A DNA stretch of 64,000 nucleotides, from assembly GCA_000165345.1 (NCBI GenBank), contig CM000435.1, positions 512,001 through 576,000 on the forward strand, in the 5' to 3' direction. This document shows, in pieces, positions 10,445 through 10,490 of the stretch. The position numbers and the translations under genes are program-made. Positions within the stretch are counted from its first letter, which is position 1, and the number at the start of each line of letters is the position of its first letter. Below the pieces are notes generated by a model, which ran no database searches, had not been told where the DNA came from, and saw only the letters and a program-made list of their open reading frames with translations.

Positions 10445-10490
10445 ATGGCGCAGTGGCGCCTTAGACACGTATTTCATGGCGTCTCGTAGT
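10445..10490. promoter_or_regulatory. GC-rich promoter elements ATGGCGCAGTGGCGCC and CATGGCGTCTCGTAG in the divergent WD40 / RPL8 intergenic region
   Basis: A GGCGCC (E2F-like) core, plus an 11-mer ATGGCGTCTCG shared with 38130-38140. Confidence 0.45.

Follow-up and report, generated by a model that had tools for sequence, protein, structure and literature searches.

The window analysed here, a stretch of 64,000 nucleotides, is part of Cryptosporidium parvum chromosome 7. It is approximately 32% GC and gene-dense, with few introns. Gene identities were assigned using Pfam and a published gene table. RPL8, RPS3 and a neighbouring hypothetical protein are identical to C. parvum Iowa II EAK90242, EAK90252 and EAK90244, respectively, and the RPL8 locus is positioned at approximately 563 kb on CP141124.1, a chromosome of 1.36 Mb. 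The genes considered here, and their start codons in the window, are as follows.

RPL8 (cgd7_2110), + strand, ATG at 10775
RPS3 (cgd7_2250), + strand, ATG at 33804
Ub-L40 (cgd7_2280), − strand, ATG at 38010
FCF1, + strand, ATG at approximately 38807 (introns present)
eIF5A, + strand, ATG at 39777
RPL22 (cgd7_2420), − strand, ATG at 61807
eIF5, + strand, ATG at 62430

Three syntenic loci (RPL8; RPS3/Ub-L40/FCF1/eIF5A; and RPL22/eIF5) were compared with those of C. ubiquitum, C. bovis and C. xiaoi, and the first two also with those of C. muris; the gene order is the same in all loci obtained. The alignment of C. parvum, a C. hominis-like assembly, C. meleagridis and C. tyzzeri is 96% identical and thus uninformative for footprinting. 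The more distant RPL8 promoters were misaligned by MAFFT, and k-mer sharing, which is alignment-free, was therefore used instead. All distances of the element are counted from the start codon.

A GC-rich word at four ribosomal-protein promoters

The 11-mer ATGGCGTCTCG, which an initial annotation of this DNA had reported upstream of two ribosomal-protein genes, occurs exactly twice in the window, at 10476–10486 and 38130–38140, both on the forward strand. No further match with up to one mismatch is present in the 64 kb, and two matches were obtained in 0 of 100 dinucleotide shuffles. Neither the tRNA scan nor the Rfam scan of the window gave a match; the ATGGCGTCTCG sites therefore do not belong to a known RNA gene. 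The 15-mer surrounding the first site spans 10475–10489 rather than 10476–10490 as first given, and the 15-mers of the two sites agree at 13 positions, out of 15 rather than 14. The element and its neighbours are located as follows.

10446–10472, + strand: E2F-like ATGGCGC (10446–10452) and TGGCGCC (10454–10460), then TTAGACACGTAT (10461–10472); neighbours of site 1
10476–10486, + strand: site 1, ATGGCGTCTCG, with the core GGCGTCTC at 10478–10485; 299 bp upstream of the RPL8 ATG, sense
10535–10544, + strand: CGAGACAAGA, a related word (core GAGAC), oriented opposite to site 1 and approximately 50 bp downstream of it
33508–33522: palindrome TGAGACG-G-CGTCTTG, comprising two inverted half-sites; approximately 295 bp upstream of the RPS3 ATG
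38065–38073, + strand: TTCGTCTTG, a weaker copy oriented like site 2; approximately 60 bp upstream of the Ub-L40 ATG
38130–38140, + strand: site 2, ATGGCGTCTCG, with the core at 38132–38139; 120 bp upstream of the Ub-L40 ATG, gene-sense reading CGAGACGCCAT
38140–38160, + strand: degenerate second 8-bp repeat GGAGTCTC (38140–38147), CGTCTT copy (38147–38152) and E2F-like TCTGGCGGG (38152–38160)
61984–61991, − strand: partner word GCGGCTAA (gene-sense), 10–15 bp downstream of the RPL22 core; present in C. parvum, C. ubiquitum and C. bovis
62002–62011, − strand: RPL22 core, gene-sense reading AGAGACGAGA; approximately 200 bp upstream of the RPL22 ATG, in the intergenic region common with eIF5
62017–62028, + strand: E2F-like TTTTTGCGCCAT adjoining the RPL22 core; found in C. 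parvum and C. ubiquitum

(T)GGCGTCTC forms the conserved core, of which CGTCT/AGACG is the half-site, and the RPL8 and Ub-L40 promoters of four lineages give the consensus (A/T)TGGCGTCTC(G/A). Judged by sequence comparison, the C. parvum 11-mer is this core with its favoured flanks. The core is present at all four ribosomal-protein genes of the window, at distances of about −100 to −350 across genes. It has the sense orientation at RPL8 and the antisense orientation at Ub-L40 and RPL22, and is palindromic at RPS3; in arrangement, RPL8 has one copy, Ub-L40 a direct 8-bp tandem and RPS3 an inverted pair.

At RPL8, the single sense copy is located between −274 and −354 across species, with GGCGTCTC kept at −307 in C. 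ubiquitum, −354 in C. bovis and −274 in C. muris; the C. muris promoter possesses an additional, self-palindromic AGACGTCT. In the alignment-free footprint, GAGACGCC is the sole GC-containing 8-mer common to the RPL8 promoters of four lineages. The order GGCGC(C), TAGACACGTAT, GGCGTCTCG is kept in C. parvum, C. ubiquitum and C. bovis, as is the downstream word CGAGACAAGA. The stretch TTAGACACGTAT, situated between the E2F-like site and site 1, is also kept in these three species. GACACGT has no occurrence in 41 kb of other intergenic DNA, and the stretch matches the published Motif 18 (WTAGACR), also of the ‘Unknown set 1’ family.

The Ub-L40 element is an antisense direct 8-bp tandem, located between −96 and −231, and TGGCGTCTC is kept at −125 in C. 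ubiquitum, −96 in C. bovis and C. xiaoi, and −231 in C. muris. The tandem is perfect in C. ubiquitum (GGCGTCTCGGCGTCTC, composed of GGCGTCTC-GGCGTCTC), and reads GGCGTCTCAACGTCTC (GGCGTCTC-AACGTCTC) in C. bovis and C. xiaoi and GGCGTCTC-GGAGTCTC in C. parvum; TTTTGGCGG follows the tandem in C. ubiquitum, C. bovis and C. xiaoi. The weaker copy TTCGTCTTG is kept between C. parvum and C. ubiquitum. Across all sampled species, the only GC-containing 8-mers shared by the Ub-L40 promoters are GAGACGCC and AGACGCCA. The C. ubiquitum Ub-L40 gene as called (13709–14232 of its locus) has 524 bp and an annotated length of 146 residues, whereas the gene of the other species has 387 bp and encodes 128 residues; the true ATG of the C. 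ubiquitum gene is at 14232. The excess length suggests an intron or a gene-model problem.

The word noted earlier upstream of RPS3, GAGACGGCGTCT, is indeed present at 33509–33520, 295 bp from the ATG, within the palindrome. The form [G/A]AGACG-S-CGTCTT is also found in C. ubiquitum, C. bovis and C. muris, with a range of −273 to −296, and the RPS3 footprint in all sampled species comprises the palindrome AGACG[G/C]CGTC and ACAAGACG.

The RPL22 upstream region had been described as lacking the element. The core TCTCGTCTCT is nevertheless found there at 62002–62011, and C. ubiquitum, C. bovis and C. xiaoi all retain it as (A/G)GAGACGAGA. The copy is single and antisense, at about −200 to −233, and is followed by GCGGCTAA. 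In C. ubiquitum and C. bovis this core is the sole CGTCTC/GAGACG match of the whole 20 kb locus, and in C. xiaoi it is the sole intergenic match of the locus. The footprint 8-mers of RPL22 in all sampled species are CTCGTCTC (overlapping AGACGAGA and ATCTCGTC) and GCGGCTAA. The latter is loosely similar to the start of Toxoplasma TRP-1 (CGGCTTATATTCG), and CGGCTAA is also present upstream of C. parvum RPS3, at 33371–33377; GCGGCTAA/CGGCTAA may represent a second ribosomal-protein promoter word.

Enrichment, conservation and E2F-like neighbours

All strand-collapsed k-mers were ranked in 15 ribosomal-protein promoters, with the other intergenic DNA of these loci (40.6 kb from four species) as background. 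CGTCTC/GAGACG ranks first of all hexamers, being present in 14 of the 15 promoters versus 4 matches in the 40.6 kb, and GGCGTCT ranks first of all heptamers (12 of 15 versus none). The nominal (binomial) P values of this ranking are 6 × 10⁻¹⁸ and below but overstate independence because the 15 promoters are orthologues of four independent ribosomal-protein genes. The C. ubiquitum Ub-L40 ‘promoter’ of the ranking held 137 bp of coding sequence, and the motif match is unchanged on correction. For C. parvum alone, where other intergenic DNA has a rate of 2 hexamer matches per 13.6 kb, the presence of the hexamer in all four promoters has a P value of approximately 1.7 × 10⁻⁵. All three occurrences of GGCGTCT in the 64 kb window are within ribosomal-protein promoters, and intergenic CGTCTC/GAGACG in the syntenic loci is found almost only at the four ribosomal-protein promoters. 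The related CGAGACA is present in 6 of the 15 promoters, versus one match in 41 kb of other intergenic DNA.

The core is still kept at orthologous promoters in C. ubiquitum, C. bovis and C. muris, where most intergenic DNA cannot be aligned. Over four lineages, the element is the sole or nearly sole GC-containing 8-mer common to the orthologous RPL8, Ub-L40, RPS3 and RPL22 promoters, and the footprint background, estimated from shuffled promoters, is approximately 0.02 shared GC-containing 7-mers per gene. At 16 control promoters, including those of eIF5A, eIF5 and FCF1, no GAGACG-containing word is common to the orthologues. The controls yield E2F footprints (GGCGGGAA and CCGCCAA) and the G-box-like CCCCACGACA, and recovery of these indicates that the footprint method works.

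The proposed scope of the element, namely genes of the translation machinery, holds for the four ribosomal-protein genes, with RPL22 now included, and does not extend to eIF5A or FCF1. The eIF5A word assigned to 39643–39653 is GTGACGCCGCC at 39631–39641, which reads GGCGTCAC on the opposite strand and therefore has no CGTCT core; it is kept only between the fairly close C. parvum and C. ubiquitum and is absent in C. bovis and C. muris, and was rejected as a copy of the element. Site 2 had also been attributed to FCF1, the start of which (approximately 38807) is 670 bp away, and FCF1 promoters share no such word across species. The eIF5 promoter was rejected as a carrier, with no such word common to its orthologues. 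Only two core hexamers of the window are intergenic and outside the ribosomal-protein promoters.

43683–43689: AGAGACGC, where the hydrolase and SAR1 genes converge, between their 3′ ends
44481–44486: CGTCTC, 145 bp upstream of SAR1

The exact core hexamer is absent at the matching places in C. ubiquitum, C. bovis and C. xiaoi (the C. muris coverage stops before SAR1). A further 10 kb of C. parvum sequence past the left edge of the window contains neither a ribosomal-protein gene nor an intergenic core match.

In 11 of the 15 promoters, an E2F-like 5-mer is located within 35 bp of the core, a number reached by 0 of 5,000 random placements. E2F-like words are common in other intergenic DNA and unspecific, with 11 GGCGCC in 41 kb. 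The element itself reads GGCGTC, and the [C/G]GCGC[G/C] core of the E2F/DP site (flanked by T/A runs) is absent from it. The C. parvum E2F/DP sites (TTTGGCGCC and TTTGGCGGGAA) resemble the element in being GC-rich, in having TGGCG in common with it and in adjoining it in the same promoters; they differ in their GCGC core, which the element lacks, and in their genome-wide use, which is without ribosomal-protein specificity.

Published motifs and a predicted regulatory site

A survey of C. parvum upstream regions described 25 over-represented motifs (Oberstaller, Joseph & Kissinger 2013, BMC Genomics 14:516, PMC3734150). Two of these, Motif 17 (VYGTCBC) and Motif 10 (RMGACG), which form part of ‘Unknown set 1’, are FIRE-enriched only upstream of expression cluster 6, composed of 33 genes of which 63% carry the motif (Motif 17 z 8.5, robustness 10/10; PMC3734150). 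According to the supplement, ribosomal proteins and translation GO terms are enriched in this cluster, and the motifs are like no known element (PMC3734150). Cluster 6 includes cgd7_2280 (Ub-L40) and cgd7_2420 (RPL22) (PMC3734150); these motifs and memberships indicate that the initial annotation rediscovered a published association. GCGTCTC at 10479 and 38133 and the minus-strand CCGTCTC of RPS3 fit VYGTCBC. GAGACG fits RMGACG at all four ribosomal-protein promoters, and the RPL22 copy, TCGTCTC, fits Motif 10 only. RPL8 (cgd7_2110) belongs to cluster 35 and RPS3 (cgd7_2250) to cluster 20, making them carriers of the element outside cluster 6.

The published motifs thus share with the element the organism, the word and the ribosomal-protein-rich association, and differ in being short, degenerate, purely computational and discussed only in the supplement (PMC3734150). 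They are missing from the main ribosomal-protein conclusions of that study (PMC3734150), and a 2025 review does not include them in its table of motifs. In print, the motif is given only as IUPAC codes in a table (PMC3734150). The element is real and, as a computational motif, has been known since 2013; the present work is a confirmation and refinement. New here are its conservation over three major Cryptosporidium lineages, the longer consensus TGGCGTCTC, the dimeric (tandem and palindromic) architectures, the tight pairing with E2F-like words, and its use at ribosomal-protein genes outside cluster 6 (RPL8 and RPS3).

The closest counterpart elsewhere is the Toxoplasma/Eimeria word WGAGACG, which has also been described as the MICA motif GCGTCDCW (Mullapudi et al. 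2009, PMC2688925, with reference to previous SAG1/GRA work). It is nearly the same 7–8-bp word, and it is likewise used on either strand, often in several copies and at no fixed position. Its core fits at all Cryptosporidium copies. The flanking W is matched at RPS3 (TGAGACG) and RPL22 (AGAGACG), at both RPL8 and Ub-L40 of C. muris, and at the Ub-L40 copies of C. bovis, and is unmatched (G/C) at the two C. parvum 11-mers (CGAGACG). Mutation of GCGTCDCW in the Toxoplasma MIC8 promoter reduces activity tenfold (PMC2688925); by analogy, this would be the nearest experimental precedent for a positive cis role of the Cryptosporidium element. The word differs in that, in Toxoplasma, it serves SAG1, dense-granule, DHFR-TS and microneme genes, without GO enrichment, while the ribosomal-protein genes of Toxoplasma rely on TRP-1/TRP-2. 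Toxoplasma TRP-1 and TRP-2 (YGCATGCR, bound by AP2XII-8) and the Plasmodium/piroplasm G-box are comparable as short promoter words of co-expressed ribosomal-protein genes, albeit of other sequences than the Cryptosporidium element. GCATGC has ten sites in the window and none in the four ribosomal-protein promoters. Essien and Stoeckert (2010) found G-box, TRP-1 and TRP-2 not to be enriched at C. parvum ribosomal-protein genes, for which they inferred unknown sites. A 2014 protein-binding microarray survey of C. parvum AP2 domains yielded no binder for this motif family, and motif discovery from sporozoite ATAC-seq data in 2025 reported only E2F and poly-T.

Three independent lines, namely the k-mer ranking, the cross-species footprints and the published cluster 6 enrichment, support the earlier suggestion that the word is a cis-acting ribosomal-protein regulon element. 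We consider it likely that the 11-mer holds a predicted transcription-factor binding site, situated 100–350 bp upstream of Cryptosporidium ribosomal-protein start codons, which together with E2F/DP would provide a shared expression programme. The variable orientation and the tandem and palindromic arrangement argue for a protein that reads double-stranded DNA, rather than an RNA signal or an initiator. The element would act at the DNA level in either orientation, usually within approximately 35 bp of an E2F-like GGCGC/GGCGG word. In the most plausible mechanism, a sequence-specific activator would bind it as an upstream activating site, and the activator and the widely used E2F/DP sites would jointly bring about common expression of ribosomal-protein genes.

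Among the alternatives, an unlikely one is that the word is a general promoter element like Toxoplasma WGAGACG, its tie to ribosomal-protein genes being an artefact of a window that has four such genes. The Toxoplasma look-alike at SAG1, GRA, DHFR-TS and microneme genes, without GO enrichment, is consistent with this, as are the sampling of just four independent ribosomal-protein genes and the core hexamer 145 bp upstream of SAR1. A general element would, however, sit poorly with the presence of only 4 core hexamers and no GGCGTCT in other intergenic DNA (approximately 40 kb, four species), with the 16 control promoters, none of which shares such a word across species, and with the additional 10 kb C. 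parvum flank, devoid of an intergenic match; the published genome-wide FIRE enrichment, moreover, is in cluster 6 only, of 200 clusters. It is less probable still that the word is a variant E2F/DP site and not a separate element. [quoted passage not shown] The invariant part of the element is nevertheless CGTCTC, not [C/G]GCGC[G/C]; GGCG is missing from the RPL22 copies (TCTCGTCTC) and from the second Ub-L40 copy in C. bovis (AACGTCTC), and genuine E2F-like words are separately present and common elsewhere (11 GGCGCC in 41 kb), whereas CGTCTC is not.

An element acting in RNA or at the transcription start, either in the 5′UTR or as a pyrimidine-rich initiator like the animal TOP/TCT, is very improbable: such an element must be on the sense strand, as in the fixed orientation of TOP/TCT-type initiators, whereas the orientation of the Cryptosporidium element varies between genes, and its distances are spread from about −100 to −350. 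The RPS3 copy does have a near-fixed position of −273 to −296 in four lineages, and distances known from the ATG only are compatible with a location in a long 5′UTR. Finally, a stretch of 64 kb will commonly contain repeated 11-mers, and the word was chosen after being seen, both of which could favour a chance match of a functionless GC-rich word; this reading is refuted by the cross-species data, the word being kept at orthologous promoters amid otherwise unalignable intergenic DNA, and is left with a negligible probability by the shuffles, none of which reproduces the repeat, by the top rank of the k-mer in an unbiased scan and by the same association in the independent 2013 study.

Beyond the predicted activator site, we tentatively propose that the GGCGTCTC box and its adjoining E2F site may constitute the specificity code of the ribosomal-protein regulon, read by an orphan factor homologous to the coccidian WGAGACG reader. 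If so, one ancient apicomplexan factor–site pair would have been rewired, serving ribosome genes in Cryptosporidium and surface and invasion genes in Toxoplasma. The element also bears more generally on regulon rewiring across Apicomplexa. Very few Cryptosporidium regulatory elements are validated, and the ribosomal-protein regulon is known to use neither the Toxoplasma nor the Plasmodium elements. A compact, genus-conserved, ribosomal-protein-specific element provides a handle for finding a candidate binding factor by DNA-affinity capture, and could help in the design of strong, growth-linked transgene promoters.

Other conserved features of the window

A CGTCTC at 16380 was rejected as an intergenic match, as it falls in the coding sequence of a small two-exon gene (16342–16645, + strand; intron at approximately 16432–16491). 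This gene, missed by simple ORF listing, encodes a membrane protein of approximately 80 residues (MHSNFKAEPFPLFVSTQ...). Between it and the SF3a gene, an ORF-free, higher-GC, unannotated stretch is located at 16921–17402. Its identity is 79% over 493 bp with C. ubiquitum and approximately 81% over 151 bp with C. bovis, far above that of the surrounding intergenic DNA, and many 8-mers are common to C. parvum, C. ubiquitum and C. bovis. Rfam gave no match for this stretch even at E ≤ 1. The stretch probably represents a non-coding RNA gene not described before.

Three footprints lie in other promoters of the window. The G-box-like CCCCACGACA (G.GGGG on the other strand) is present in all four lineages in the divergent promoter of an ORC-like AAA ATPase and an alpha-beta hydrolase (42069–42576). 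The E2F-type GGCGGGAA, a footprint kept throughout the genus, is found in 32982–33431 (at 33173 in C. parvum), upstream of a minus-strand gene (31347–32981) encoding a 544-residue hypothetical protein. A genus-wide footprint, TAGACATCACA, is located in 36955–37404, upstream of the minus-strand gene at 35836–36954, which encodes a hypothetical protein of 372 residues.
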